This document shows, one piece after another, positions 17,533-28,269 of a DNA stretch of 29,923 nucleotides. Every line of letters starts with the position of its first letter. Position 1 is the first letter of the stretch. Source of the stretch: Candidatus Doudnabacteria bacterium (GTDB taxonomy: Bacteria; Patescibacteriota; Doudnabacteria; UBA920); contig JAHFJK010000002.1 in assembly GCA_023245915.1 (NCBI GenBank), positions 1 through 29,923 of the forward strand. Reading direction: 5' to 3'. The position numbers were made by a program, and so were the translations under genes. Under the pieces are notes generated by a model. It did no database searches and was not told where the DNA came from. It saw nothing but the letters and a program-made list of their open reading frames with translations.

Positions 17533-17560
17533 AAAACTGTCACAGTAAAGACAGTTTTTT
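17531..17560. terminator. Bidirectional terminator between toxin and ligase genes
   Basis: AAAAAACTGTC-8nt-GACAGTTTTTT, 11-bp perfect stem. Confidence 0.7.
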
Positions 17561-18833
17561 ATATTGATAACGACAAAACCATCCAAAACACCATTGCCAA
17601 ATCGTTTTTAAAATAGGGGTTGTCAATAAGGCCTTGGAAGAGGAGGCAGATGAGGAAGAGGGCGACAGCCAACTTTATGTCATTCCCGCGAAAGCCTGCC
17701 TTGCCGGCAGGCAGGCGGGAATCTAGATTGTGGATTCCGGCTAGCCCTTCGCCGCTTCGCGGCTCCGTGGCTGCCGGAATGACACTGGGGCGGAGGCCGC
17801 GATAAATATAAATTGATATTAATCCCAAGAAACTAATTAGACCTAACAAGCCCGTTTCTACCCAAAAATTTAAAAATACGTTATGCGGAAAGTTGTGAGT
17901 ATCTAAATTGGGGTCAGTGTTTAGCTTTTGCCAGTTATTACCAAAGCCTGTTAAGCCTAATCCAAAAATTGGCGACTCTTTTATAGCTTTAACGCCTGTG
18001 TGCCAAAGCGAAAGGCGAGAGATGGCAGATTTTTCCCCATAAAAGGGAAGGACAAAGCGCCAGCGAAGATTGGGGACGGAAATTATAACAATAACCATAA
18101 CAATAACGGCGGCGAAGATCAGTTTGCGGATTTTGGCTTCAGCAGCCACAATCAAATAAATTCCAATAGCTGCGGCCAGCCCTAAGAAACCGGCGCGGGA
18201 AAAGGAAAGGAGCAGGCCGAGCGCGCCTAAGGCCCAGGCGAGGGATTTTAGATTTAAGATTTTAGATTTAAGATTTTCAAAAACGTCGGGAATCAATAAT
18301 GCCAAAAGCGGGGCTGACCAAAGGGCGTAAAAATTCGGATGTGCAAAAAAACTCAACGCGCGTTTTGGCTCGTTGGCATTGCCCCAATAAATTTGCGGAA
18401 GGCCGAGTAAAGTGAAATATTGCAGTATTGCGTAAAGACCAGCTAAAGCTAGTAAGTAGTAAGTAGTAAGTAGTAAGTAACTTTTGCTTTGCGGATGTTG
18501 CTCAAAGAAAAATTTGCCAATGAAAAAAATCGAAATCGGTTGAAGAAACAAAACAATAAATTGTCCCAACTTTGCCTGGTCGAAGCCTTTGATGAATAAA
18601 CTGATTATTCCAGAGATGAAGAAAAAGCCGACTGTTAGTAAAATCTCTTTGCGAATATTTTTGACGGCCGTCAAAAATATTCGCGCCCGTTTTTTTGCGA
18701 TGACATTAACCACAAATGCTATCCAAACCAAAAATACCCACATCATCAGAATATTTCTGGGAAGAAAACCCAAGTTAAACCGAATGGCATAAGCCGGAGC
18801 CAGAATAAAAGTTATAATAAGCAGGTAAAGCAT
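17559..18833 (-). CDS. O-antigen ligase-like (WaaL/Wzy_C) membrane protein with in-frame repeat insertions
   Basis: ~12 TM segments, RA--FF-HPN, LSFSRAG, R--LW--G, P-FG-G, PHN-FL-FW-E-GL-G, F------ND motifs. Confidence 0.88.
   Translation of the reverse strand: MLYLLIITFILAPAYAIRFNLGFLPRNILMMWVFLVWIAFVVNVIAKKRARIFLTAVKNIRKEILLTVGFFFISGIISLFIKGFDQAKLGQFIVLFLQPISIFFIGKFFFEQHPQSKSYLLLTTYYLLALAGLYAILQYFTLLGLPQIYWGNANEPKRALSFFAHPNFYALWSAPLLALLIPDVFENLKSKILNLKSLAWALGALGLLLSFSRAGFLGLAAAIGIYLIVAAEAKIRKLIFAAVIVMVIVIISVPNLRWRFVLPFYGEKSAISRLSLWHTGVKAIKESPIFGLGLTGFGNNWQKLNTDPNLDTHNFPHNVFLNFWVETGLLGLISFLGLISIYIYRGLRPSVIPAATEPRSGEGLAGIHNLDSRLPAGKAGFRGNDIKLAVALFLICLLFQGLIDNPYFKNDLAMVFWMVLSLSI
17678..17784. 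repeat. CGTC-type REP/RPE-like palindromic element inserted in frame in the ligase gene
   Basis: Terminal IR TGTCATTCC/GGAATGACA; translates as VIPAATEPRSGEGLAGIHNLDSRLPAGKAGFRGND. Confidence 0.85.
18245..18279. repeat. Heptamer-periodic tract inside the ligase CDS
   Basis: ATTTTAG ATTTAAG ATTTTAG ATTTAAG ATTTTCA; encodes ENLKSKILNLKS. Confidence 0.8.
18450..18479. repeat. (TAGTAAG)4 simple sequence repeat inside the ligase CDS
   Basis: Four perfect heptamers at 18450-18477; encodes YLLLTTYYL. Confidence 0.9.
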
Positions 18834-18838
18834 ATTTT

Positions 18839-18880
18839 GAGATCCCTCGCTCCGCCAGCTGGCGGAGCTAAGGATGACGG
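18839..18880. repeat. Half of a GTCATCC-type REP with a nested perfect 20-bp palindrome
   Basis: GAGATCC...AGGATGACG frame; GCTCCGCCAGCTGGCGGAGC at 18849-18868; 5 bp from the ligase start codon. Confidence 0.7.
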
Positions 18881-18888
18881 CGTGGACC

Positions 18889-21492
18889 TCAGTTGCCTGG
18901 GAATTTTAACCCGCCGACGTCAAAAATAATGTTGGTGCTGGTGTCTGCGGAATTGCCGCCAATGTCAGTGGCTTTGGCAGCCAAAACGTGGGTACCGGCT
19001 CCGTAATCTTTATTTAAAGAAAAAATAAATGGCGCTAGAGTTTTGCTTTGTAGTAGTTCACCGTCCACCGACACTTGCACCCGCGCAATTGGTTTAGACC
19101 CGGCCGCAGTAACCTGGATATTAAACGGTAAGGAGGTAATTACCGCACCCTCGGACGGAGCGTCAATGCTCACCGCGGGTTTTTGTCCTGTTGAGTTGTC
19201 TGGATTGTTGGCAGGAGGGTTAATAAGGTCGCCTGGAGGATAAGTATAGCCGTGAGCCAGTGCCCATTCCACTACCGGGTTTTCCCAGTCAGGGTTGTCT
19301 TTTTTTTCGCTGTGCAAAACTGTGTAAATTTTGTCAATAATATTTTCGGGCAAAGTTAAATTAGTCGCCGGCAAGCCAGTGGCGGAATCGGCAGAGACTT
19401 TTATGTGCACATCGTCATAAGTTGTGGGTACCGCGTAGTCAGCAAAGACTTCGGTTTTGGTGACTGGTGTGGCGTCAGTAGGCAGTTTGCCGGAAAGTTC
19501 GTCCACAGCAACCTGCTGGATGCCGCTGGGCACAGGGAAAGCCTCCAGGGGCTGGCCGGCTAATGCGTTTTGCATGAATTCGTGCCAGATTGGCGCGGCT
19601 ACCACAACTCCATCCGCGCCTTTTTTCATGGGACACTTGGTACCGCCGCAATTATTTCCGGCCCAGACACCAGCTGCCAGGGAAGGGGTAAAGCCCATGG
19701 TCCAGCCATCCCCCCAGTCGTTGGTAGTGCCGGTTTTGGCCGCTACCGGCCGGTCAGGCAAAGTCAGCGGCGAGTTGGCGCCGAAAATAAAACTTCGGGC
19801 GTTATTGTCAGTCATAATGCTGATAAGCTCATATGCGGCCTGGGGGTCTAAAACACTTTGGGGATTGCTTTTGTATTCTTCCAAAATCTGGCCATCTTTG
19901 TTTTCAATTTTTAAGATGGGGGTCTTTTCATTTTTTACGCCTTCGTTAGCGATTACCGAATAAGCGGCAACATGGTCAACAAGTTTTACCGTACATCCCC
20001 CTAAAACCAAAGACAGCCCGCAGTCGGCCATGGGGCTGGTAATACCTAAATCTCGCGCGGTTTGGGTGGCACTATTTACTCCTACCAAAGCTAAAGTTTT
20101 TACCGCAGGAACATTCAAGCTTCCAGCTAAAGCTTTGCGCATAGAAAGCGGCCCATAAGATTGGCCAGAATAGTTGCTCGGAGCGTAGTCTTTTCCGCCA
20201 TATGTACCGAAATCAGTTACAACATCAAATAAGGGGGAGGCCGGTGAATATTTAAAATCTTTTTTGAAAGCCGTTGCGTAAACATAAGGCTTAAAGCTTG
20301 AACCGGGTTGTCTCTTGTCTGAAATAGCGACATTCACGTTCGGCTCAAACATACAGTTTTTTCCGGGCGTACAGCCGGCGGGTTCAGGCTTGCCAAAATA
20401 ATCTTTGCTGCCGACCATAGCCAAAATTTGGCCGGTCCTGGGATCGATAGCCACCAGCGCGGCATTGTCGGCATTGTATTTTTTGGATGAGTTTTCTACC
20501 CCGTTTTTTACCGCGGCCTCGGCAATTGCCTGTAGACGCAAATCTAAAGTAGTATAAACCTTTAGGCCGCCTTCCTGCAAAGTTTTTTCCCCGTATTTAT
20601 TGGCCAGATAATCTTGCACCCATAAAACAAAGTGCGGCGCTTTTATGCCGTTAGTCAGTTCGGAAAACTGGACTTTTTCTTCCTGTGCCTGCTTTTTTTG
20701 TTCTTCAGTAATATAGCCCTGTTGCTGCATGTAAGATAAAATTGTATTTTTGCGGTTGTCCAAAGCCTGACGGTTTGGACCCAGTGGATTGTAGTAGGTA
20801 GGGGCTTGCGGTAAAGTGGCCAAATAAGCGCTTTCTGCTAAAGATAAATCTTTTGCCGATTTGTTAAAGTAGCTGTTGGCCGCCGCTTCAATGCCATATG
20901 AATTCCTGCCGTAAGGGATTTCGTTTAAATATAATTTTAAAACTTCGTCCTTGGAAAAACGTGAATCTATAGTGACGGCTAAAATCATTTCACGGATTTT
21001 TCTGTCCCAGGATTTGTCGTCGGTCAATATGGCTTTTTTGACAAATTGTTGGGTAATCGTGCTGCCACCCTGGCTTTTGCTGGCAGTCAAAACGTCGACT
21101 ATGACAGCTCGGGCAATGCCAGTTAGAGAAATACCGCCGTGTTTATAAAAATCTTTATCTTCTATTGCAATAGTCGCGTTTTTTAAAAAGGGAGAAATAT
21201 CATTTAAGTTTTTTTGTGTGCGTTTGTAGCCACCGTGAATTTCGTAAAGCAAACTGCCGTCACGCGCAAAAATTTTGGAAGATTCCGGGACATTTCTGTC
21301 TAAAAGTTTGTTTGGATCGGGCAAATCTTTGGCATAGTACAAAAACATGACAGCAATAAATAAAACGCCCAAGGCAAATAGGCGGAAAGCCCAGGTAAAG
21401 AGTTTTCTGGCATTAAATCTGCCCCACTTAAAACGCAAGCGTTTCCTGGAATTTTTACTGTAAGGCGAGTTTTTGTAACTGTAAACACGCAT
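18889..21492 (-). CDS. Class A penicillin-binding protein with C-terminal Ig-like domain
   Basis: EDKDFYKHGG and GGSTITQQ (transglycosylase); SSFK, SLN, KTGT (transpeptidase); C-terminal G-H---A-ATD--GN Ig-like domain. Confidence 0.95.
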   Translation of the reverse strand: MRVYSYKNSPYSKNSRKRLRFKWGRFNARKLFTWAFRLFALGVLFIAVMFLYYAKDLPDPNKLLDRNVPESSKIFARDGSLLYEIHGGYKRTQKNLNDISPFLKNATIAIEDKDFYKHGGISLTGIARAVIVDVLTASKSQGGSTITQQFVKKAILTDDKSWDRKIREMILAVTIDSRFSKDEVLKLYLNEIPYGRNSYGIEAAANSYFNKSAKDLSLAESAYLATLPQAPTYYNPLGPNRQALDNRKNTILSYMQQQGYITEEQKKQAQEEKVQFSELTNGIKAPHFVLWVQDYLANKYGEKTLQEGGLKVYTTLDLRLQAIAEAAVKNGVENSSKKYNADNAALVAIDPRTGQILAMVGSKDYFGKPEPAGCTPGKNCMFEPNVNVAISDKRQPGSSFKPYVYATAFKKDFKYSPASPLFDVVTDFGTYGGKDYAPSNYSGQSYGPLSMRKALAGSLNVPAVKTLALVGVNSATQTARDLGITSPMADCGLSLVLGGCTVKLVDHVAAYSVIANEGVKNEKTPILKIENKDGQILEEYKSNPQSVLDPQAAYELISIMTDNNARSFIFGANSPLTLPDRPVAAKTGTTNDWGDGWTMGFTPSLAAGVWAGNNCGGTKCPMKKGADGVVVAAPIWHEFMQNALAGQPLEAFPVPSGIQQVAVDELSGKLPTDATPVTKTEVFADYAVPTTYDDVHIKVSADSATGLPATNLTLPENIIDKIYTVLHSEKKDNPDWENPVVEWALAHGYTYPPGDLINPPANNPDNSTGQKPAVSIDAPSEGAVITSLPFNIQVTAAGSKPIARVQVSVDGELLQSKTLAPFIFSLNKDYGAGTHVLAAKATDIGGNSADTSTNIIFDVGGLKFPGN

Positions 21493-21604
21493 GCCCAGTA
21501 AGACTTCTTTGTAATTTTATTAATAATTAGTCCAGTTCACTTTTGTTATTTACCCAGTATCTTTTGAACAAGCAGCCGGATTGCAAAGAAGTTCTACTGG
21601 GCAT
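21491..21604 (-). promoter_or_regulatory. PBP 5' leader with a 25-bp inverted repeat covering the start codon
   Basis: 21491-21515 versus 21580-21604: 22 of 25 positions complementary. Confidence 0.6.
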
Positions 21605-21610
21605 GGACAA

Positions 21611-21648
21611 ATTATAGCCTTTTTTAAGGTTTTGGAAAATGGTATAAT
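21611..21648. promoter_or_regulatory. Divergent -10 elements for PBP (minus) and tyrS (plus)
   Basis: TATAAT on minus 21616-21611; extended TGgTATAAT on plus 21640-21648. Confidence 0.55.
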
Positions 21649-21668
21649 GGTTGAGAATTAAGATATAA

Positions 21669-21688
21669 CCTGCCTGCCGGCAGGCAGG
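21669..21688. repeat. Perfect 20-bp micro-palindrome in the tyrS leader
   Basis: CCTGCCTGCCGGCAGGCAGG; variants at 17695-17715 and 23898-23913. Confidence 0.85.
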
Positions 21689-21700
21689 GATTTAAGATCT

Positions 21701-22891
21701 ATGAATGATCCAATTCAAGAGCTTTTAAGCAGGGGCGTGGCTGAAATTTTTGTTAAAAGCGAGTTAGAGCAAGCTTTGCAATCGAAAAAAAGTCTTAGTG
21801 TTTATTATGGGGTCGATCCATCGGGACCCGCAATCCATTTGGGTCATGCCGTGCTTTTGAGGAAGCTTCAAATTCTTCAAGAATTAGGTCATAAAATAAT
21901 TTTTTTGATTGGCGATTTTACCGGAATGATTGGCGATCCTACCGATAAAAATTCTATAAGACAGCCGCTTAAGAGAAAAGAAGTTTTAGCAAATGCTAAA
22001 ACTTATAAAAAACAGGTTTCAAAATTTTTAAATTTTACGGGGAAAAATCCTGCCAAGATTGTTTTTAACAGCAAGTGGAATGATAATTTGAAATTTAAAG
22101 ATGTTATTGAGCTTTCGGGTAAGTTTACTGTTCAGCAGCTTTTAGAAAGAGATATGTTTCAAAAAAGAATGGAAGAAAACAAGCCGATTGGCCTGCACGA
22201 GTTTTTATATCCACTTATACAAGGCTACGATGCCGCTGTTTTAGAGGCGGATATGCAGATTGGGGGGACGGATCAAACTTTTAATATGCTGCAAGGCCGT
22301 TATTTGACCAAAGCTTTAAAGAATAAAACTCAAATGGTTTTAACTTGCGAGCTGTTAGTAGGCACAGACGGCAGGAAAATGTCAAAAAGTTTTAATAATG
22401 TGATTGATATTGAAGATGAGCCCAGTGAAATGTTCGGCAAGGTCATGTCAATAAACGACGATTTAATAAAAAAATATTTTGTTTTGGCTACCCGTGTGCC
22501 TTTGGAAGAAATTGACCTGATAATAAACTCAAATGCAAATCCACGAGATCAAAAATTAATTTTAGCTGAAAAAATTACAGCTTTATATCATGGTGAGAAA
22601 AAAGCCGTTGCCGCTAAAGCAAATTTTGGTAAAAAGTTCAGACAATCGTCAGGAGAAATTAAAGCTGATTTTGAGCTGGCGTTAGATAAAGGGAGTCGGA
22701 CATTTAGCGGACTACTTGGAATATTAGTTAGTGGAGGCTTGGCGACTTCAAAATCTGAGGCTAGGAGAAAAGTGGAAGAAGGTGCGGTAGAAATCAACAA
22801 TGAACGAGTTAGTGTCAATGAAAATCGGTTACTTGAAATAAATAAGGGAGATCTGATTCGTTTAGGAAAAAGATTTTTAAAAATTGTCTAA
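21701..22891 (+). CDS. tyrS: Tyrosine--tRNA ligase
   Basis: GVDP...HLGH, IGDPT, YPLIQGYD, GGTDQ, KMSKS, C-terminal S4-like domain. Confidence 0.97.
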   Translation: MNDPIQELLSRGVAEIFVKSELEQALQSKKSLSVYYGVDPSGPAIHLGHAVLLRKLQILQELGHKIIFLIGDFTGMIGDPTDKNSIRQPLKRKEVLANAKTYKKQVSKFLNFTGKNPAKIVFNSKWNDNLKFKDVIELSGKFTVQQLLERDMFQKRMEENKPIGLHEFLYPLIQGYDAAVLEADMQIGGTDQTFNMLQGRYLTKALKNKTQMVLTCELLVGTDGRKMSKSFNNVIDIEDEPSEMFGKVMSINDDLIKKYFVLATRVPLEEIDLIINSNANPRDQKLILAEKITALYHGEKKAVAAKANFGKKFRQSSGEIKADFELALDKGSRTFSGLLGILVSGGLATSKSEARRKVEEGAVEINNERVSVNENRLLEINKGDLIRLGKRFLKIV

Positions 22892-22895
22892 ATTA

Positions 22896-22920
22896 AAACC
22901 CCCTCTTTGCGAGGGGGTTT
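22896..22920. terminator. Bidirectional terminator after tyrS
   Basis: AAACCCCCTC-TTTGC-GAGGGGGTTT. Confidence 0.75.
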
Positions 22921-22966
22921 CTCTTTTAGCCTGAGTTGAGCGTTTATCCGCGACAAATCGGCGGAT

Positions 22967-23092
22967 TTACATAGCGCCGCCACTCATACCTTCACCACTT
23001 TTATCCTCATCTTCGTCAGAAGCAGGCGTAGAGGGCTCTGCCGCGGTTCCGCCGCCCATGCTGCCGTCGGCAGGCATATCGTCAAAAAACAT
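22967..23092 (-). CDS. 41-aa acidic Gly/Ser-rich small protein (below the ORF-track size cutoff)
   Basis: MFFDDMPADGSMGGGTAAEPSTPASDEDEDKSGEGMSGGAM; SD-like AGAAAGGA upstream, promoter TTGCGT-17-TATAAT (23322-23294) and downstream hairpins. Confidence 0.55.
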   Translation of the reverse strand: MFFDDMPADGSMGGGTAAEPSTPASDEDEDKSGEGMSGGAM

Positions 23093-23307
23093 TTTTGTTA
23101 TCCTTTCTCGGGTCAATCGCTCTCTCTTCGTTCGTCTAGATTATCATCTAGACTCACTTTGTTTCGAGCATTGCCCCTCTCCCCAAATTTTCCTTGTATA
23201 AACCCCAACTGAAAATTTGGGATCCCCTGAAAATTTATGTTGAGGAGTTAGTGTTAAATTTACAGAATTTACCTATATAAATTCTATTTTCAGATTATAG
23301 CAAGTCC

Positions 23308-23802
23308 TTATTGTATACGCAAGCTTGTATGAAAGTGGTGCATGGTACATACGGCAATAGCTAAAGCGTCGGCGGCATCGTCGGGCTGGGGCGCAGATTT
23401 TAGTTTGAAAGTTTTTTTAATAATGTATTGGACTTGTTCCTTGGTTGCTTTGCCATAACCGCAAATGAAATTTTTGACTTGCAAGGGTGTGAATTCAAAA
23501 ATCGGCAGTTTGTTGGTTTGGCAAACCAAAAGCGCCACTCCCCTGGCCTGCGAGACCGTCATGACGGTTTTTTGGTTGGTAGTTAGAAAAAGTTTTTCCA
23601 CTCCTACAGCGTCCGGCCTAAACTTTTTTATTATTTGATTTAAATCCTCTGCCAAAATTTCCAGCCGTTGGGCATGGGATAAAACTTTTTTGGTCGCGAT
23701 AATTCCAAAGTCTTCGAGCAGGTACTCGTCTGCCCGTTTTGTGGATTTAATAATTCCGTATCCGGTTGTCGCGGTTCCGGGATCAATTCCCAATATAACC
23801 AT
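23308..23802 (-). CDS. ruvC: Holliday junction resolvase
   Basis: LGIDPG, VEKLF, QARGV, FTPLQVK, GYG-ATKEQV, PDDAADALAIA. Confidence 0.96.
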   Translation of the reverse strand: MVILGIDPGTATTGYGIIKSTKRADEYLLEDFGIIATKKVLSHAQRLEILAEDLNQIIKKFRPDAVGVEKLFLTTNQKTVMTVSQARGVALLVCQTNKLPIFEFTPLQVKNFICGYGKATKEQVQYIIKKTFKLKSAPQPDDAADALAIAVCTMHHFHTSLRIQ

Positions 23803-23807
23803 AAAAG

Positions 23808-23931
23808 AAATCCTAAATCCTAGAACCTAAAAACTAAACAAAGTTGAAATTCTAAAGGTTTAAATTTTTAAACTTTAATTTTATAGAGTTTGTTTAGCCT
23901 GCCTGCCGGCAGGGCTTTAGTCTTTAGATTT
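23808..23931. repeat. Heptamer-periodic palindrome (CTAA/TTAG core) with a nested CCTGCC micro-palindrome
   Basis: ATCCTAA ATCCTAG AACCTAA AAACTAA left arm; TTTGTTTAG-[23898-23913]-GCTTTAG TCTTTAG right arm. Confidence 0.7.
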
Positions 23932-24647
23932 TATAAATTAGCTGATGTATGTACCGCAATCACGTCTTCGTCATTTTCCAGTGCAGCAAACAGCTCATCC
24001 ACTTTAGGTTTTTGTTCTTCTGTTAAGTCAGTGCCTTGCGATGATTCTTGAATAATATCAGCCTGTGCCACTTTAGCGCCGGCTTTTATAAGCACGTTTT
24101 TGATTTTAGTAAGATCGTTAGCATATGTGTAGACTTCTAAACCTTCCACAGATTCCCGGACATCTTGCGCTCCCGCATCTATCGCCGCTAATTCGATCTT
24201 AGGCAAATTATCATCGCGTTCCACCAAAATTTGTCCTTTTGTAGCAAACTGCCAGACAACACTGCCCTGCGCGCCCATGTTGCCGCCGTGGTCTTCAAAA
24301 ATTTTACGGATATTATTGGAAGTGCGGTTGGTGTTGTCAGTCGCACACTCAACCAAGAAGGCTGTGCCAAAAGGGCCGTAGCCTTCGTAAGCCACTTCTT
24401 TAATATTGCCTCCGCCTGCGCCTGTGGCTGCCTTTATGGCGCGATCAATGTTGTCATTCGGCATGCCCTGGGCCTTGGCATATTCAATCGCGCTTTTTAA
24501 TTTAAAGTTGGAGTTAGGGTCTCCGCTTCCGCCTTCTTTGACCGCAATGGAGATTTTTTTTGAAAGTTTGGAAAAGAGCAGTCCCCGTTTTTGGTCGAGA
24601 ACCCCTTTGGTGCGTTTAATTTGCGACCATTTGCTGTGTCCGGACAT
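23931..24647 (-). CDS. yebC: YebC/PmpR family protein
   Basis: MSGHSKWSQIK, YEGYGP, TDNTNRT, LE--EDV--V-TSA. Confidence 0.96.
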   Translation of the reverse strand: MSGHSKWSQIKRTKGVLDQKRGLLFSKLSKKISIAVKEGGSGDPNSNFKLKSAIEYAKAQGMPNDNIDRAIKAATGAGGGNIKEVAYEGYGPFGTAFLVECATDNTNRTSNNIRKIFEDHGGNMGAQGSVVWQFATKGQILVERDDNLPKIELAAIDAGAQDVRESVEGLEVYTYANDLTKIKNVLIKAGAKVAQADIIQESSQGTDLTEEQKPKVDELFAALENDEDVIAVHTSANL

Positions 24648-24671
24648 AGAATAGGAATTAGCAGTTAGGAA

Positions 24672-25454
24672 TTAGGATTTAAAACTAATCAAGACTGTTA
24701 ATTCTCCCTTTATCGACTGTCTTTTTTTTAATTCATCTGACACTTGCATTGGCGTGCCGCGGATGAATTCTTCATGCATTTTTGTCAGTTCTCGGGCAAC
24801 CACAACCTGCGATGTTGGAAAGGCGTTGGCAATGTAATTTAAAGTTTTTAAAATTCTTTCCGCTGATTCATAAAATATGGCCGTGGCCCCTGCTTGCTGC
24901 GCGGCTTCCAAGGCTTCGACAGATTTAATCGCGGTTTTTTGCAAGAAGCCTAAAAATAAAAATCTGTCAGTTGGCAGGCCAGAGGCGGAAAGCGCAGCAA
25001 TCGATGCGCTCGCGCCAGGGATTGGAACCACTTGGACTTTTTCTTTTACACATTCTCTCACTAACCTAAATCCCGGATCAGAAATTCCCGGCGTGCCCGC
25101 ATCTGTAATTAGGCAACCGTCAGATTTTTGCAATCGTCTAGTTAAATCTTTTACCACCTGCTGTTCGTTGTGCTCTGCGAATTGGACAATCTCTTTTTTT
25201 GCGAGCGCAGCCGACCTGTCCGCCGAAGCTTCAGCGTAGGTGGAAGCAATCTTACCTTGGATGGAGATTGCTTCGTCCCCCTCGACTGCGCTCGGGATCC
25301 TCGCAATGACAGGGAGAGAGTCGATGTATTGCAGCAACCTTTTGGAATAATTCGGATTCTCCGCAATCACAAAATCGCAGGCTGTTAAAGTTTCAATTGC
25401 CCGCAAAGTTATGTCCCCCAAATTGCCTATAGGAGTAGCAACAACGTAGAGCAT
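24672..25454 (-). CDS. rsmI: 16S rRNA C1402 2'-O-methyltransferase with ~37-aa repeat-derived insertion
   Basis: LYVVATPIGNL-DIT-RA, TDAGTPGISDPG, PIPGAS, YES--R, RELTKMHEE, KGE. Confidence 0.93.
   Translation of the reverse strand: MLYVVATPIGNLGDITLRAIETLTACDFVIAENPNYSKRLLQYIDSLPVIARIPSAVEGDEAISIQGKIASTYAEASADRSAALAKKEIVQFAEHNEQQVVKDLTRRLQKSDGCLITDAGTPGISDPGFRLVRECVKEKVQVVPIPGASASIAALSASGLPTDRFLFLGFLQKTAIKSVEALEAAQQAGATAIFYESAERILKTLNYIANAFPTSQVVVARELTKMHEEFIRGTPMQVSDELKKRQSIKGELTVLISFKS
25199..25310. repeat. CGTC-type REP/RPE-like element inserted in frame in rsmI
   Basis: TTGCGAG...CTCGCAATGAC ends; GAAGCAATCT/AGATTGCTTC stem (25243-25252, 25265-25274); encodes VIARIPSAVEGDEAISIQGKIASTYAEASADRSAALA. 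Confidence 0.85.
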
Positions 25455-25470
25455 GGTTTATTTTATTAGA

Positions 25471-26214
25471 TCATTTAGATTGTTCCCACATATACCAAAA
25501 CCAGGTTCTGTAGCTTTCGGCCAGATTTTTGCTGTGAATTACAAAGAAGACAACATTTTCGTCCAGTCTTTTTAAAGTTAAGCCGGTGTAGGTCATAACA
25601 TAATCGCCAAAAACATGGATGCCGGAAGTCGTTGAATACTCTTTGGGTAAAAAACGGTATTGTAAATCCCCTTCATAATTTTTAGCAAAATCTTTTAAAT
25701 TTTTAACTTCGTAGTCAAAAAGCTGAATAAATTTTATTTTTTTGCGTTTGGCTTCGGCAAAAAAAGCTTTGCGCGCGGTTTCTAAACGCGGGTCATACCA
25801 CCCACCCTTGGCCCCGATAAAATAACTTTCCTTGCCCACACGCAAGACGTCCCGCCAAATATTTTTTTGCCCTTCCAAACCGCGGTAAATATAGGCTTCC
25901 TCGGGGGCGATTCTCTGAATGAATCTTTTTTTTAGCTCCGGTAAAATTGTCTTAAGTTTTTGTTCTTTTTCCGAGTAAAGCTCCAGCAATTTATCGGGAT
26001 CCACGGCATTGTATTTATTTTCCTTGCTGGAGAAAATTTCAAAACACAAGCCCTTGTCAATCAGCCGGTTAATCGCATCATAAGCATTCCTCCGGTGAAT
26101 TTGGGCGCTTATGGCAATCGCGCTAATGGACGACTCGCCTTTTTCTACTAAGGTTTGGTAAATTTTTCCTTCATTGGGCGAGAGACCCAGGTCTTGGTAT
26201 ATTTCTTGATTCAT
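25471..26214 (-). CDS. TrmB-family wHTH transcriptional regulator (copy 2)
   Basis: LGLSPNEGKIYQTL...RRNAYDAINRL HTH; Y-GLEG-KNIW linker parallels copy 1. Confidence 0.85.
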   Translation of the reverse strand: MNQEIYQDLGLSPNEGKIYQTLVEKGESSISAIAISAQIHRRNAYDAINRLIDKGLCFEIFSSKENKYNAVDPDKLLELYSEKEQKLKTILPELKKRFIQRIAPEEAYIYRGLEGQKNIWRDVLRVGKESYFIGAKGGWYDPRLETARKAFFAEAKRKKIKFIQLFDYEVKNLKDFAKNYEGDLQYRFLPKEYSTTSGIHVFGDYVMTYTGLTLKRLDENVVFFVIHSKNLAESYRTWFWYMWEQSK

Positions 26215-26310
26215 TTTGTGGTGCTTATTGCTACCCTATGGTGGTCTTGGCCACTCAATAGGTATATTATAGACTTTATTATTGATAGTCAAGCAAGAAG
26301 GGGGAGAAAC

Positions 26311-26748
26311 ATGTCCATCCATCAAGCAGAAATTTTAGATCGATGGAAGCGGGGGAATTTTTTGGAGGTAGGAGTTGCAATTCCCGGTTTCAAGTACGAT
26401 TTGCCCTGGGTGCCCTATGAGAACTACATGCAAGTGCAGCTCGTTGAGGCCATACCAGGACAACCCGGTAAACTGATAATTCAGTTTCCAAAAGATGGCG
26501 CGGAAGACGAGCAGTTTCACATCCATCCGGTTTCTGACCGGGTGATTACGGTTCTCCAAGGCAGCGGCCAGTTTGTGGCAATTCGTAACTTCACCAAAGT
26601 TGTTTATGAGTTGGAGGCGGGTTGTCGCTTGTGCATGCCGCGCGGTGTTGTGCGCAATTTTTTCGGAAATTTGTTGGTTGAGTCGTTGCATCTCCCTTTT
26701 ATCGCGTTTGAAAGTCCGTTCTGCTTCGTTCGCGTGCTGGTTGACTGA
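26311..26748 (+). CDS. Cupin-domain protein
   Basis: HIHP-SDRVITVLQGSG (cupin motif 1) and G--L-MPRGVVRNF (motif 2); ATG 26311 after SD GGGGAG. Confidence 0.75.
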   Translation: MSIHQAEILDRWKRGNFLEVGVAIPGFKYDLPWVPYENYMQVQLVEAIPGQPGKLIIQFPKDGAEDEQFHIHPVSDRVITVLQGSGQFVAIRNFTKVVYELEAGCRLCMPRGVVRNFFGNLLVESLHLPFIAFESPFCFVRVLVD

Positions 26749-26761
26749 TAAGAAAGCGCCG

Positions 26762-26790
26762 ACAGGCCGTTAATCTTCAGCGGCCTGTTT
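26762..26790 (+). terminator. Hairpin after the cupin gene
   Basis: ACAGGCCG-11nt-CGGCCTGT followed by TT. Confidence 0.5.
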
Positions 26791-26822
26791 CTATGTATGG
26801 TTGTTAAAAAAAGGAGGAAGGT

Positions 26823-27271
26823 ATGCGGATTGTAAAAGATAATAAGGGTGGCAAAACTGGCCGTATAGTTTTACTTGTGCTTCGCTTTAATTTGGCCATA
26901 AAGTTTTTTCGTTGCCGCTCTTTGTGGCGGGGCTTGGCAGACAACTGGCGCGAATATCGCTTTTACAGCAAAACCCACCATCCTTTTTGCCAGCCAACCC
27001 ATTTTTCTTTTTTTGGGTTGGTTAACTTTCAGGCTTTGGGCGACGTTTGCCAGATGCATGAAGAAAGTTTTTACCTTAAGATGTCAGAGTTCTTGGGCGA
27101 AGACGATTGGGCGAAGACGAGGAGACTTGGACTGATATTCACCATTTCAGCAATCCCAAAAATTTCTGTATTGATTTTGATGGCAAGTTGCGCATTCTGG
27201 ATTATGGTAGCCTTTTAACACAGGCGGTTATTAAGCGGTATGGAAAAGTAATCCGACAGAATTTTTGTTAG
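26823..27271 (+). pseudogene. Minimal protein-kinase-like gene frameshifted by a 14-bp tandem duplication
   Basis: TTGGGCGAAGACGA repeated at 27093-27106 and 27107-27120; deleting one copy gives a 144-aa ORF with GGKTGR, AIK, NWRE, DIHHFSNPKNF and LDYG. Confidence 0.7.
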
Positions 27272-27302
27272 TCGACAAAGAGAAACGAGAGAGGAGACGG
27301 AA

Positions 27303-27674
27303 ATGAGTCTAAGCAACGAAGAAGTGATTGAACATCTACGGCAAACCCATCCAAGAGAAGTGCCTAGTGATTACAGTTTGTACAATTGTAATAGACGCGT
27401 AAATGTTTGGGCGGTACACGAACAAAACAGAAAATCCGGAGTGCTAGGGTTTGACGCTCTGTTCTTGGTATGGAAAACCAAGACTGGCAAAATCACTTCT
27501 CACTGTGGAGCCCTCAGTAATCTCGGTCAGGAGTACAATATTATAAGTGTTGTTGAAAAGAATAAAGCTGTCTACGTTACTTATACCTACTATAACCCTC
27601 GAGAAGATAAGGAGAAATGGTGGGCGTTTAAAATTCCGCTAGCTGAAATGCAGGAGGAAGCCGAAAAAGAGTAG
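27303..27674 (+). CDS. Hypothetical protein
   Basis: 123-aa ORF with SD GAGGAG and a downstream terminator; no family recognised. Confidence 0.7.
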   Translation: MSLSNEEVIEHLRQTHPREVPSDYSLYNCNRRVNVWAVHEQNRKSGVLGFDALFLVWKTKTGKITSHCGALSNLGQEYNIISVVEKNKAVYVTYTYYNPREDKEKWWAFKIPLAEMQEEAEKE

Positions 27675-27698
27675 ACCAGTTCAACTTTGGGAGTGCGC

Positions 27699-27725
27699 TG
27701 ACAGACCGCGTAGTCTGTCATTTTT
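27699..27725 (+). terminator. Rho-independent terminator
   Basis: TGACAGAC-CGCGTA-GTCTGTCA then TTTTT. Confidence 0.75.
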
Positions 27726-27729
27726 CTTT

Positions 27730-28008
27730 TTACCAATTTTTATCTGGCGATTCGAGTCCAGACGCCGCTTCTAAAAAGTCATATTCCGCTTTTAACTTAT
27801 CCCGGTAATCTTCCAGTTCAGCTTTGGCCTCCCCTTCGGCTTCGTACCATTCGTCATAAGTCGACTTTAATTCATCTTCAATCTCCTGAAGCCTTGCGTA
27901 TGCTTCGGTTTCATTCTGCGGGCCCTGCTCTGCCCACTCCTCATAGCTAATACCTAAGAGCTTGTGGTACTTGTCGTCATATAAAGTTTTTATATCTTCC
28001 GGATCCAT
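27730..28008 (-). CDS. Highly acidic helical hypothetical protein
   Basis: 92 aa, 28 D/E; upstream TTGGCT-17-TATACT promoter-like sequence. Confidence 0.75.
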   Translation of the reverse strand: MDPEDIKTLYDDKYHKLLGISYEEWAEQGPQNETEAYARLQEIEDELKSTYDEWYEAEGEAKAELEDYRDKLKAEYDFLEAASGLESPDKNW

Positions 28009-28057
28009 AAGTTAATTTAGTATACAATAGGCGAGATTATCAGCCAAATATAAATAA

Positions 28058-28269
28058 AGAAAAACCCCTTGGATTACCTGACCGTCAGGTCATATTGGTA
28101 AAAGGGGTCTTTCGGAAAAGTCAAAAGAAGCTATTTAAGCCGGAAGATTAACCTTGCGGCCCATCGCCTTAAAAATAGAGGCGATATATGTCCCGATTGG
28201 TCGGGACCGCTTAAAACCTATGAAATTGGTTTTTATTTTGGTTTCTTCTAATGAAGAACTAACTTTTCT
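28058..28269 (-). ncRNA. Candidate stand-alone structured small RNA
   Basis: Bounded by a strong promoter and a GACCCCTTT/AAGGGGTT terminator with T tract; no plausible ORF; nested stems. Confidence 0.4.

Follow-up and report, generated by a model that had tools for sequence, protein, structure and literature searches.

The stretch of DNA analysed here (the window, 29,923 nucleotides) is a contig, C5, of the Candidatus Doudnabacteria genome under study (G000; 1.06 Mb in 110 contigs, 42% GC), the relatives of which are ultra-small Patescibacteria-type genomes of 0.7-1.6 Mb. The window carries several short palindromes, some of them nested within larger hairpins, and the principal subject of this work is one of these, CCTGCCTGCCGGCAGGCAGG (hereafter unit A), a GC-rich palindrome of 16-21 nt. 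Our analyses point, with a probability that we put at about 0.6, to two superimposed layers of hairpins: host elements of the NTS/SRM type, and separate micro-palindrome modules (A, and also a unit C and a family with TCCGCC arms) that were added to them. Unit A is among the smallest apparently mobile DNA units.

Unit A as a separate DNA module

In the gene for an O-antigen ligase (Wzy_C; 17559-18833, minus strand; Pfam PF04932, E 6.5e-22), a 21-nt variant of A (17695-17715), read as LPAGKAG, lies at the junction between the loop and the 3' arm of an NTS-type hairpin. Deletion of 21 nt at 17694/5-17714/5 restores TTCCCGC-GAAA-GCGGGAA, as had been claimed in an initial annotation of the window, the unit coordinates of which were all correct. 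The restored hairpin has 6 paralogous matches at no more than 2 mismatches in G000, and in the ligase orthologs of two sister species, G012 and G002, the hairpin AGATT..CGC-TTTC-GCGGGAATGAC is unbroken where G000 has 21 more bases, that is, the seven codons LPAGKAG. When the same excision was applied throughout G000 and the rejoined flanks were searched, a paralogous empty host was recovered for 24 of 43 A-like copies, whereas random segments passed the test at 1%. The excised length was nearly always 19-21 nt, and a target duplication was absent at all 24 restored sites; the addition was precise. The hosts thus recovered comprised both hairpins of a double-hairpin family (Fam1), a second such family (Fam2), two more hairpin families, heptamer arrays and A itself; overall, A was found in at least eight unrelated host families plus unique DNA in G000. 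A copies inside A were also seen in a deltaproteobacterium and in a metagenome-assembled genome (MAG) of Bacteroidetes.

Empty sites were likewise found among orthologs. In BipA/TypA (contig C72), A plus one base inserts PAYRQAG between RGITI and DTPGH, and the site is empty in 17 of 18 same-genus orthologs. The same beta-turn holds another, 54-nt nested palindrome in G018 (L057) and a further insert in G034 (L069), and it is thus a recurrent, tolerant insertion site. On contig C43, a duplicated 5' part of tRNA-Asn holds a 16-nt A exactly between GGTA and GAGC, and its empty counterpart is the intact tRNA-Asn located 300 nt downstream. Because removal of A restores paralogous and orthologous hosts without target duplication, A is a discrete, separately inserted DNA module. 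An artefact as the origin of this pattern is excluded by the isolate genomes, the in-frame copies and the orthologs. The comparison of filled and empty hosts, which the initial annotation had called for with the absence of empty alleles as the outcome that would speak against it, therefore yielded clean empties of both the paralogous and the orthologous kind.

Variants included, G000 has about 35 true copies of A in its 1.06 Mb, among them 8 exact 20-mers. Because certain composites multiply as units (e.g. C36/C42/C62 and C59/C60/C74), such copy counts overstate the number of independent events. The variants include one with A at position 8, a 19-nt form, a 16-nt form and a 21-nt form with an extra T, the arms being conserved and the centre variable (GCCGGC, ACCGGC, ACCGC, GCAGGC or TTGCCGGC). 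The reversed sequence of A, used as a control, gave 0 matches in 41 related genomes. Besides the ligase copy, the window holds a free 20-nt A (21669-21688), located 12 nt upstream of the start codon of tyrS (TyrRS; 21701-22891, plus strand) in a TTAAGAT-like heptamer context, and a shortened 16-nt A (23898-23913) in a heptamer-like tract of the ruvC-yebC spacer, the excision of which gave one weak paralogous empty site only. Tracts of this type frequently house A copies, in G000 as well as in other phyla. The window itself has heptamer-like tandem tracts at 18245-18279 and 18450-18477 within the ligase gene and at 23805-23930 and 24650-24680 in spacers.

The exact 20-mer of A was present in at least 120 stretches of species-representative genomes belonging to many phyla, a count that is a lower bound, against about one expected for a random 20-mer by our estimate. 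It further occurred in 35 stretches of viral contigs. Among the relatives of G000, A was found in 22 of 41 genomes with patchy copy numbers. The cultured Bacteroidota Longitalea luteola SYSU D00799 (G043) carries approximately 31 copies, and nearly all of the 20 that were inspected (L272-L291) lie in heptamer arrays of the TTNNGCG or AAATCTC type. In one IMG/VR contig, 3300025106_000007, a 21-nt A variant (CCATGCCTACCGGCAGGCAGG) is repeated in tandem at least 10 times up to the contig end (L249:3900-4142), and more A variants lie close to this array, the 21-nt extra-T form among them.

All four coding copies in G000, namely those in the ligase, a membrane protein on contig C86, BipA (20+1) and uvrC (contig C52), amount to a net 21 nt, in agreement with the earlier expectation that coding copies should be multiples of 3. 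The other copies are 16, 19 or 20 nt long, save for a divergent 21-nt variant at C54 7139, the coding status of which is uncertain. The 21-nt form is present in a viral contig too; it is therefore a pre-existing subfamily kept by selection and not a bespoke repair. In long open reading frames (ORFs) of other genomes, A showed no reading-frame bias (18/13/12). The 5' region of uvrC occurs on two contigs of G000, of which C89 (7307-7360) has a 30-nt twin TCCGCC hairpin and C52 (700-745) a 21-nt A; the two inserts lie 3 nt apart in one heptamer tract, both in frame with the GIY-YIG domain. This pair suggests either very recent turnover or co-binned strain variants. The larger element inserts in the ligase, rsmI and the C86 protein also have lengths that are all multiples of 3 nt.

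The relation of A to hairpin loops was evaluated with perfect stems in place of minimum-free-energy (MFE) folding. When reconstructed empty sites were folded by MFE, 10 of 29 events lay no more than 2 nt from a predicted loop. The null was 24-29%, inflated by weak spurious hairpins, and the difference was therefore not significant. With perfect stems of at least 6 bp, 5 of 29 independent A events in G000 lay no more than 1 nt from a loop (genome-wide null 5%, p 0.014). Among 128 copies from other genomes, the loops of such stems held 13%, versus 4% of random positions (p 2e-5), and the preference persisted within strata (10% vs 3% inside long ORFs; 15% vs 6.6% outside). Outside tRNA arms, the preference of A for hairpin loops is thus real and modest, amounting to 2-4-fold, and most A copies lie outside any recognisable hairpin. 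In the other genomes, 62% of the copies were outside long ORFs (48 of 128 were inside), as against 16% of random positions, and tolerance therefore explains much of where copies survive; much of the nesting of A can also reflect neutral landing pads. As for the flanks, TC on the left or GA on the right accompanied 20 of 29 copies in G000. An asymmetric variant of A in the relatives had TC on the left nine times and GA on the right once, and the insertion is therefore polar.

Host elements and the other small palindromes

A listing of flanking-motif copies revealed in G000 the two families of double-hairpin elements mentioned above, each element being about 100 nt long. Fam1, as deduced from 41 genome copies, has the architecture GTCATTCCGG-tip-CCGGAATCCA...GGATTCCCGC-tip-GCGGGAATGACA, and Fam2, as deduced from 33 end matches, TGTCATTGCGAG-tip-CGAAGCAATCT...AGATTGCTTCG-tip-CTCGCAATGACA. 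In the window, a Fam1 element, a doublet of the SRM/NTS type (GTCATTCC...GGAATGAC; 17679-17783, minus strand), lies in frame in the ligase gene. A Fam2 element (TGTCATTGCGAG...CGAAGCAATC...GATTGCTTC...CTCGCAA; 25200-25311, minus strand) lies in frame in rsmI (TP_methylase by Pfam; 24672-25454, minus strand), the hairpin element of which adds 114 nt in frame, and a full-length paralog with both tips identical is located at C82 4644. The ligase insert, which measures 96 nt in G000, 54 nt in G012 and 63 nt in G002, has no counterpart in six orthologs. At the rsmI site, eight orthologs are empty, having an unbroken 87-nt segment, and six other species of the genus (seven with G000) have differing hairpin elements inserted at this codon, the lengths differing by 54-117 nt and always by a multiple of 3. 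These comparisons demonstrate that the ligase and rsmI elements are insertions. The rsmI orthologs L022-L027 show Fam1-like, NTS-like and other elements at one codon, with altered flanks (QYIDGL vs EHIGAWP), which suggests a single old insertion followed by rapid replacement of elements.

The second Fam1 hairpin of the ligase (about 17678-17726), after subtraction of A, matched the NTS consensus CGTCATTCCCGCGMAVGCGGGAATCYRG, as published for the Ssn system (PMC11893778), at 27 of 28 positions. Eight uninterrupted NTS-like copies were detected in G000 with a 27-nt consensus (0-2 mismatches), and the reversed control gave 0. According to the same paper, the NTS/SRM motif has an ATTCCC-N8-GGGAAT core with asymmetric flanks; SsnA, a 94-aa single-domain GIY-YIG protein, binds the NTS hairpin as single-stranded DNA (ssDNA) only and cuts a few nucleotides upstream of it; and ssnA homologs typically have such hairpins on both sides, in the order NTS-ssnA-NTS (PMC11893778; Chenal et al., 2025, Nat Commun 16:2388). 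In G000, 15 GIY-YIG matches were obtained, and the small ORFs among them number 12. Four of the 12 (on C69, C75, C46 and C60) encode single-domain proteins of 96-99 aa (PF01541, E 1e-13 to 2e-16) and are bracketed by inverted GTCAT...ATGAC hairpins, and a short element at C88 7284 has its first hairpin in common with the C69 cassette. The host hairpin in the ligase, which the initial annotation had called a REP (repetitive extragenic palindromic) sequence, is thus an NTS/SRM repeat of the published Ssn GIY-YIG system and hence of an already known kind.

The likeness to Ssn/SRM lies in the dispersal of the repeats in many copies and in the GIY-YIG ORFs flanked by hairpins on both sides, whereas the hairpins of G000 differ in forming doublets and in lying in frame inside genes. 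The word "tRNA" is absent from the Ssn paper, and nested micro-palindromes or in-frame coding copies do not appear in its consulted sections (PMC11893778). Unit A has a different sequence from NTS, being a bare 16-21-nt palindrome without NTS-like asymmetric flanks. The dRS3 repeats of Neisseria stand beside NTS/SRM as close known repeats. Functionally, Fam1 and Fam2 in the ligase, rsmI and the C86 protein also resemble the Rickettsia palindromic elements, which are about 100-150 bp long, lie in frame in unrelated housekeeping genes and are read as an extra peptide (PMC10969869; Ogata et al., 2000). This is not a matter of membership, the sequence families being unrelated: the host lineage differs, the gene site in G000 holds differing elements in sister species, and, unlike the Rickettsia elements, Fam1 and Fam2 carry smaller nested modules and are tied to GIY-YIG genes.

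The other micro-palindromes of the window had been supposed to behave alike, and this was substantiated for A and, less completely, for unit C and the TCCGCC family, both of which look like discrete modules of the same sort. The 14-mer CCGCCAGCTGGCGG (18852-18865; 5 copies) belongs to a TCCGCC-loop-GGCGGA family with 38 loci in G000. It lies in a half element (18839-18880) that carries a TCCGCC-AGCT-GGCGGA mini-hairpin (18851-18866) at its tip and is situated in the 55-nt spacer between the genes for PBP1A (18889-21492, minus strand) and the ligase; since this spacer is unrelated in ten orthologous loci, an exact empty allele of the half element is undefinable. Unit C (25215-25240), an imperfect palindrome of about 28-31 nt, is nested in one arm of the Fam2 element in rsmI. 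Its 26-mer has 3 exact copies plus variants in G000, and an empty form of its host, GCGAGTGCATCCGAAGCAATC, occurs at C66 2830 and C57 1993. The exact 26-mer was also found in 20 stretches from genomes of many phyla, often within other hairpins, where far fewer than one would be expected.

As for the remaining units, the relatives of D, E and F in G000 are only loosely similar, and the idea of minimal mobile units, which is borne out by discrete modules that occur free, in hairpins and in themselves, did not extend to E and F. Unit D (CCCTCGACTGCGCTCGGG; 25279-25296), a single exact copy, forms the tip hairpin of the other Fam2 arm, and hairpins of its type (CCCTCGAC..CGCTCGGG) elsewhere host other mini-hairpins; D is therefore better described as host sequence than as a demonstrated insert. 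Unit E (ACCTGACCGTCAGGT; 28076-28090), a palindrome of 15 nt that lies within the large loop of a hairpin resembling a terminator, and unit F (GTCCCGATTGGTCGGGAC; 28190-28207), a GTCCCGA..TCGGGAC hairpin, each have a single exact copy in G000 and gave no sign of mobility there. The 13-nt core of E has one further copy (C21 1609), and F-like hairpins form the tips of elements at C46 3178 and C93 24181 and, in G007, occur in a tRNA fragment that neighbours a GIY-YIG gene.

The flagged part of the window further contains genes for RuvC, YebC and a TrmB-like regulator. Its segment 26808-27663 (856 nt), which holds small ORFs at 26823-27218 and 27303-27674, is missing from the main contig assembled for the source sample (depth 7.3), with 6 nt shared at the joint, and the filled form has a depth of about 2.5. 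This segment appears to be a presence/absence polymorphism within the population.

A cassette at the tRNA D-loop

The main site of A is the D-loop junction of tRNA genes, GGTA^GAGC. The 28-mer GGTA-A-GAGC, in which A occupies this junction, was exact in 111 stretches, assigned by their record titles to Patescibacteria, Omnitrophota, Planctomycetota, Gammaproteobacteria, Bdellovibrionales, Acidobacteriaceae, Weeksellaceae and one Nanoarchaeia MAG. The targeting of pre-existing stem-loops, which the initial annotation had postulated in general, therefore stands for the tRNA D-arm, and elsewhere shrinks to the 2-4-fold preference given above. tRNA fragments account for 85 of the 87 evaluable sites. 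An intact tRNA follows downstream at 80 of the 87, with 11 identities of which Asn and Thr are the commonest, and a GIY-YIG ORF follows at 46, its domain starting at a median of 23 nt after A. At two of the 87 sites (L375 and L330), subtraction of A leaves a whole tRNA gene, in one case a tRNA-Asn without a nearby second copy and in the other a tRNA-Ile. Either these genes were hit recently, or their tRNAs tolerate the insert or have it removed.

The set of 155 A-bearing loci from other genomes, which also served for the neighbour and half-site comparisons, was searched with a profile of the G000 GIY-YIG ORFs. Eight small GIY-YIG ORFs were detected, five of them within 64 nt of A. An all-against-all BLAST comparison of the ORFs in these loci clustered only phage structural genes; it had missed the small, divergent GIY-YIG ORFs that the profile found. 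The partner gene found for A is accordingly one for a GIY-YIG nuclease, and not for the HUH/Y1 transposase or reverse transcriptase that the initial annotation had proposed to look for. The five loci and G016 share one layout, in which the 5' part of a tRNA, with A lodged in the D-loop, the D-stem or the anticodon loop, is followed after 16-32 nt by a GIY-YIG ORF of about 90 aa and then by an intact tRNA. The tRNAs seen with this layout are Asn (G000), a Leu-type according to its anticodon loop (G016), Lys (WWE3), Leu and Gly, and a viral contig is also represented. In the C43 cassette (L002:1060-1335), the GIY-YIG ORF extends into the intact tRNA, and its stop is the TAG of the tRNA D-loop (GGTAGAGC).

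The nucleases of these cassettes form a second clade with the C-terminal motif EKYLKSGxGxxFLK. They share only 33% identity with the SRM-flanked ORFs, as against 61% among the latter, and the pairing of A with this clade resembles a hairpin-nuclease pair parallel to that of Ssn. Their nearest solved relatives are a UPF0213 protein and the SLX1 structure-specific nucleases. Related layouts with other mini-hairpins were observed in G007, in G016 and on contig C30 of G000, and in a Bdellovibrionales MAG two copies of a Fam1-type hairpin come after a GIY-YIG gene, the second of them with A in its loop.

Small GIY-YIG genes at tRNA loci have a precedent in segB, a free-standing GIY-YIG homing endonuclease gene in the T4 tRNA gene cluster. 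Like homing endonuclease genes, the small GIY-YIG gene of the A cassette sits at tRNA genes and is spread through genomes and phages. The cassette differs from them in its ORF of only about 90 aa without a DNA-binding domain, in the duplication of the 5' part of the tRNA together with an invariant palindrome, and in that this palindrome disperses alone too.

Proposed explanation and its alternatives

In the two-layer explanation, the elements of about 100 nt would be cognate repeats of SsnA-type nucleases and behave like miniature derivatives of the hairpin-bracketed cassettes; as with the Rickettsia palindromic elements, they would survive in genes only if they are in frame and in tolerant loops. 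Onto this layer, the micro-palindromes would be added precisely, without target duplication, and preferentially at the 3' edge of hairpin loops, at the centres of palindromes (their own included), beside TC/GA and within arrays of heptamers. For A, the archetypal target would be the tRNA D-loop junction, where it may mark the left side of the cross-phylum cassette. The data establish that A is discrete, with empty sites, that its coding copies are filtered for frame, how it is distributed and that it is linked to the nuclease gene; its recognition, the nicking and its copying-in are inferences. By analogy with SsnA and NTS, the second-clade GIY-YIG nuclease may recognise A as an ssDNA hairpin and nick beside it, and solo copies could then be dispersed by nicking together with host copying or repair, the copy-in step relying on host replication or repair. 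We regard the EKYLKSG-type nuclease as a tentative candidate for the factor that mobilises A, at somewhat less than even odds; a Y1 transposase is an unlikely one, and the remaining probability falls on another, unspecified factor. More speculative, and on balance doubtful, is the fuller proposal in which A (perhaps with C and TCCGCC) would be the cognate ssDNA hairpin of this second clade and form with it a new class of selfish element, one that invades the D-loop or anticodon-loop junction of a tRNA gene, regenerates the tRNA and sheds solo hairpins of 16-31 nt into exposed loops anywhere, in selfish hairpins and genes alike.

Several observations weigh against this explanation. At 34 of the 87 composite sites the nuclease ORF was undetected, relatives rich in A cannot be told apart from those free of it by how many GIY-YIG genes they have, and most solo copies of A lie far from any nuclease gene, the clustering having given no conserved neighbour. 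A could also have entered the tRNA fragments as a secondary hit on a neutral hairpin, without being part of the cassette. The loop preference in G000 was not significant when compared with other positions of the same hosts, and across phyla the TC/GA flank rule is weak (24% vs 12%). An empty-allele joint was not seen at any A site in the assembler contigs of the source metagenome, the one material searched for it, by which absence is not established. To our knowledge, moreover, GIY-YIG nucleases do not join DNA, and the copy-in step has no known catalyst.

Among the other explanations, movement of A and its kin as REP-like hairpins on ssDNA, in trans, by a Y1/HUH transposase (RAYT or IS200-like) is unlikely, and yet it fares best. 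REP/REPIN sequences are 20-40-nt palindromes in many copies, without target duplication, that carry GTAG/CGTC tags and have been proposed to move on ssDNA (PMC3116915, PMC3733652), and A shares with them the lack of target duplication, the hairpin-forming unit and the polarity relative to a short flank. Of the 41 relatives, 30 have Y1_Tnp genes, as does every genome with at least 6 A matches, and G000 has one RAYT-like ORF (NF047646, 60.5 bits). However, Y1 counts do not discriminate A-rich from A-free relatives, and many Y1-positive genomes lack A. The RAYT-like genes of G000 and of four inspected relatives (G036, G033, G016 and G006) are flanked by their own differing hairpins, GTAG-tagged in two cases, and never by A, and the REP next to the gene in G000 is present in only about 7 copies. 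No conserved GTAG or CGTC tag was seen in the flanks of A (29 + 129 copies), and A, in contrast to REP/REPIN, stands as a singlet and not a doublet, occurs in coding DNA too and is found across phyla. Its identity between phyla contrasts with REPIN-RAYT systems, for which mostly vertical inheritance is reported (10.1101/2022.05.22.493013). The only A copy near a RAYT gene, in G036, turned out to be the tail of a neighbouring ROK-family gene, the RAYT gene having its own hairpins. The G000 ORF (C75:14085-14730), which encodes 177 aa and is below the 80-bit cut-off, is bracketed by GTAGGGGC... hairpins with about 7 genome copies; it is a small REP-RAYT unit unrelated to A, and a PDB search with the RAYT-like protein gave no match. 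Nor does A conform to the miniature inverted-repeat elements (MITEs) of DDE transposons, which have terminal inverted repeats and target-site duplications, given that no duplication was present at the 24 sites.

It is also rather improbable that the palindromes are host-selected functional sites (for protein binding, as RNA stabilisers or terminators, or as modulators of transformation) that selection kept or created. Their exact 20-mer conservation across phyla and the copies in 5' leaders and at gene ends would suit such a role, as would the NTS hairpins of Neisseria, which with SsnA modulate transformation (PMC11893778). Against it stand the insertion polymorphism between sister species, the inconsistent position relative to genes and the copies within coding loops, within each other and within dead tRNA fragments. 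A function of A after insertion is not excluded.

Slightly less probable again is that the units do not move by themselves and are permanent tips of larger repeat subfamilies, exchanged among copies through gene conversion or through recombination between conserved stems. Unit C and its adjacent bases are indeed common to a Fam1 copy (C9 1210) and to Fam2 copies, the rsmI element shares its tips with that at C82 4644, composites with A at the same host position recur, and D is host sequence. Such recombination contributes, but it cannot explain A in a single-copy gene with orthologous empties (BipA) or in tRNA fragments, and the presence of A in at least eight unrelated host families plus unique DNA, letter-perfect in distant phyla and in unrelated contexts, also speaks against it. 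That A is a scar left when two 8-10-nt termini of a larger transposon were joined by imprecise excision, as its conserved arms and variable centre might suggest, is very improbable, since target duplications are lacking, the same centre variants recur as subfamilies in many genomes, inverted isolated half-site pairs 0.1-8 kb apart were absent from G000 (the fragmented assembly of which could hide a multicopy insertion sequence), no larger transposon bounded by A halves was found there, and the few half-site pairs in the 155 other loci were all in repeat-rich viral contigs.

The system had been put forward as undescribed. This does not hold for the hosts, which are NTS/SRM repeats of the Ssn system (PMC11893778); A and its tRNA cassette are unreported, in so far as our literature searches for A-type sequence strings, for REP/RAYT in Patescibacteria and for GIY-YIG with tRNA or MITE returned nothing relevant and gave no paper that deals with A, with its tRNA cassette or with the occurrence of these repeats in Patescibacteria.

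Very small nested repeats also exist in cyanobacteria. The SDR1-8 repeats of heterocyst-forming cyanobacteria, attributed to work by Elhai in 2008, are reportedly hairpin repeats of 21-27 nt that insert precisely into other repeats and lie within heptamer tandem arrays too, with no partner enzyme or tRNA cassette reported. A resembles SDRs in being a small hairpin-forming sequence inserted precisely into other repeats and heptamer arrays. By description they are set apart: SDRs come from a single group of cyanobacteria, and A and C are found without a letter changed in many phyla as well as in viral contigs. For one of the SDRs, SDR5, insertion within HIP1 is stated (PMC4390886).

If a 20-nt palindrome can be copied into new sites, this would set a new lower size limit for mobile DNA and, if true, would imply an insertion route without a classical transposase or target duplication. 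Should the tentative proposal of a new element class made of A and its GIY-YIG nuclease prove true, no smaller mobile DNA units would be known, and these would pass from phylum to phylum and by way of phages. The nuclease link would offer a testable function for a very large family of "hypothetical" nucleases of about 90 aa, and it would extend the 2025 Ssn discovery by a second hairpin-nuclease pair, by the invasion of tRNA genes and to Patescibacteria. An ssDNA nuclease that acts sequence-specifically at a known 20-nt hairpin would moreover make a useful tool, and Longitalea luteola, a cultured carrier with its approximately 31 copies, makes experiments feasible and is a possible experimental system. 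For the organisms themselves, the in-frame copies indicate that selfish hairpins add to or remodel surface loops of essential proteins (BipA, UvrC, RsmI and the O-antigen ligase) in minimal-genome bacteria, and they may explain many of the odd GC-rich peptides in metagenomic protein databases.

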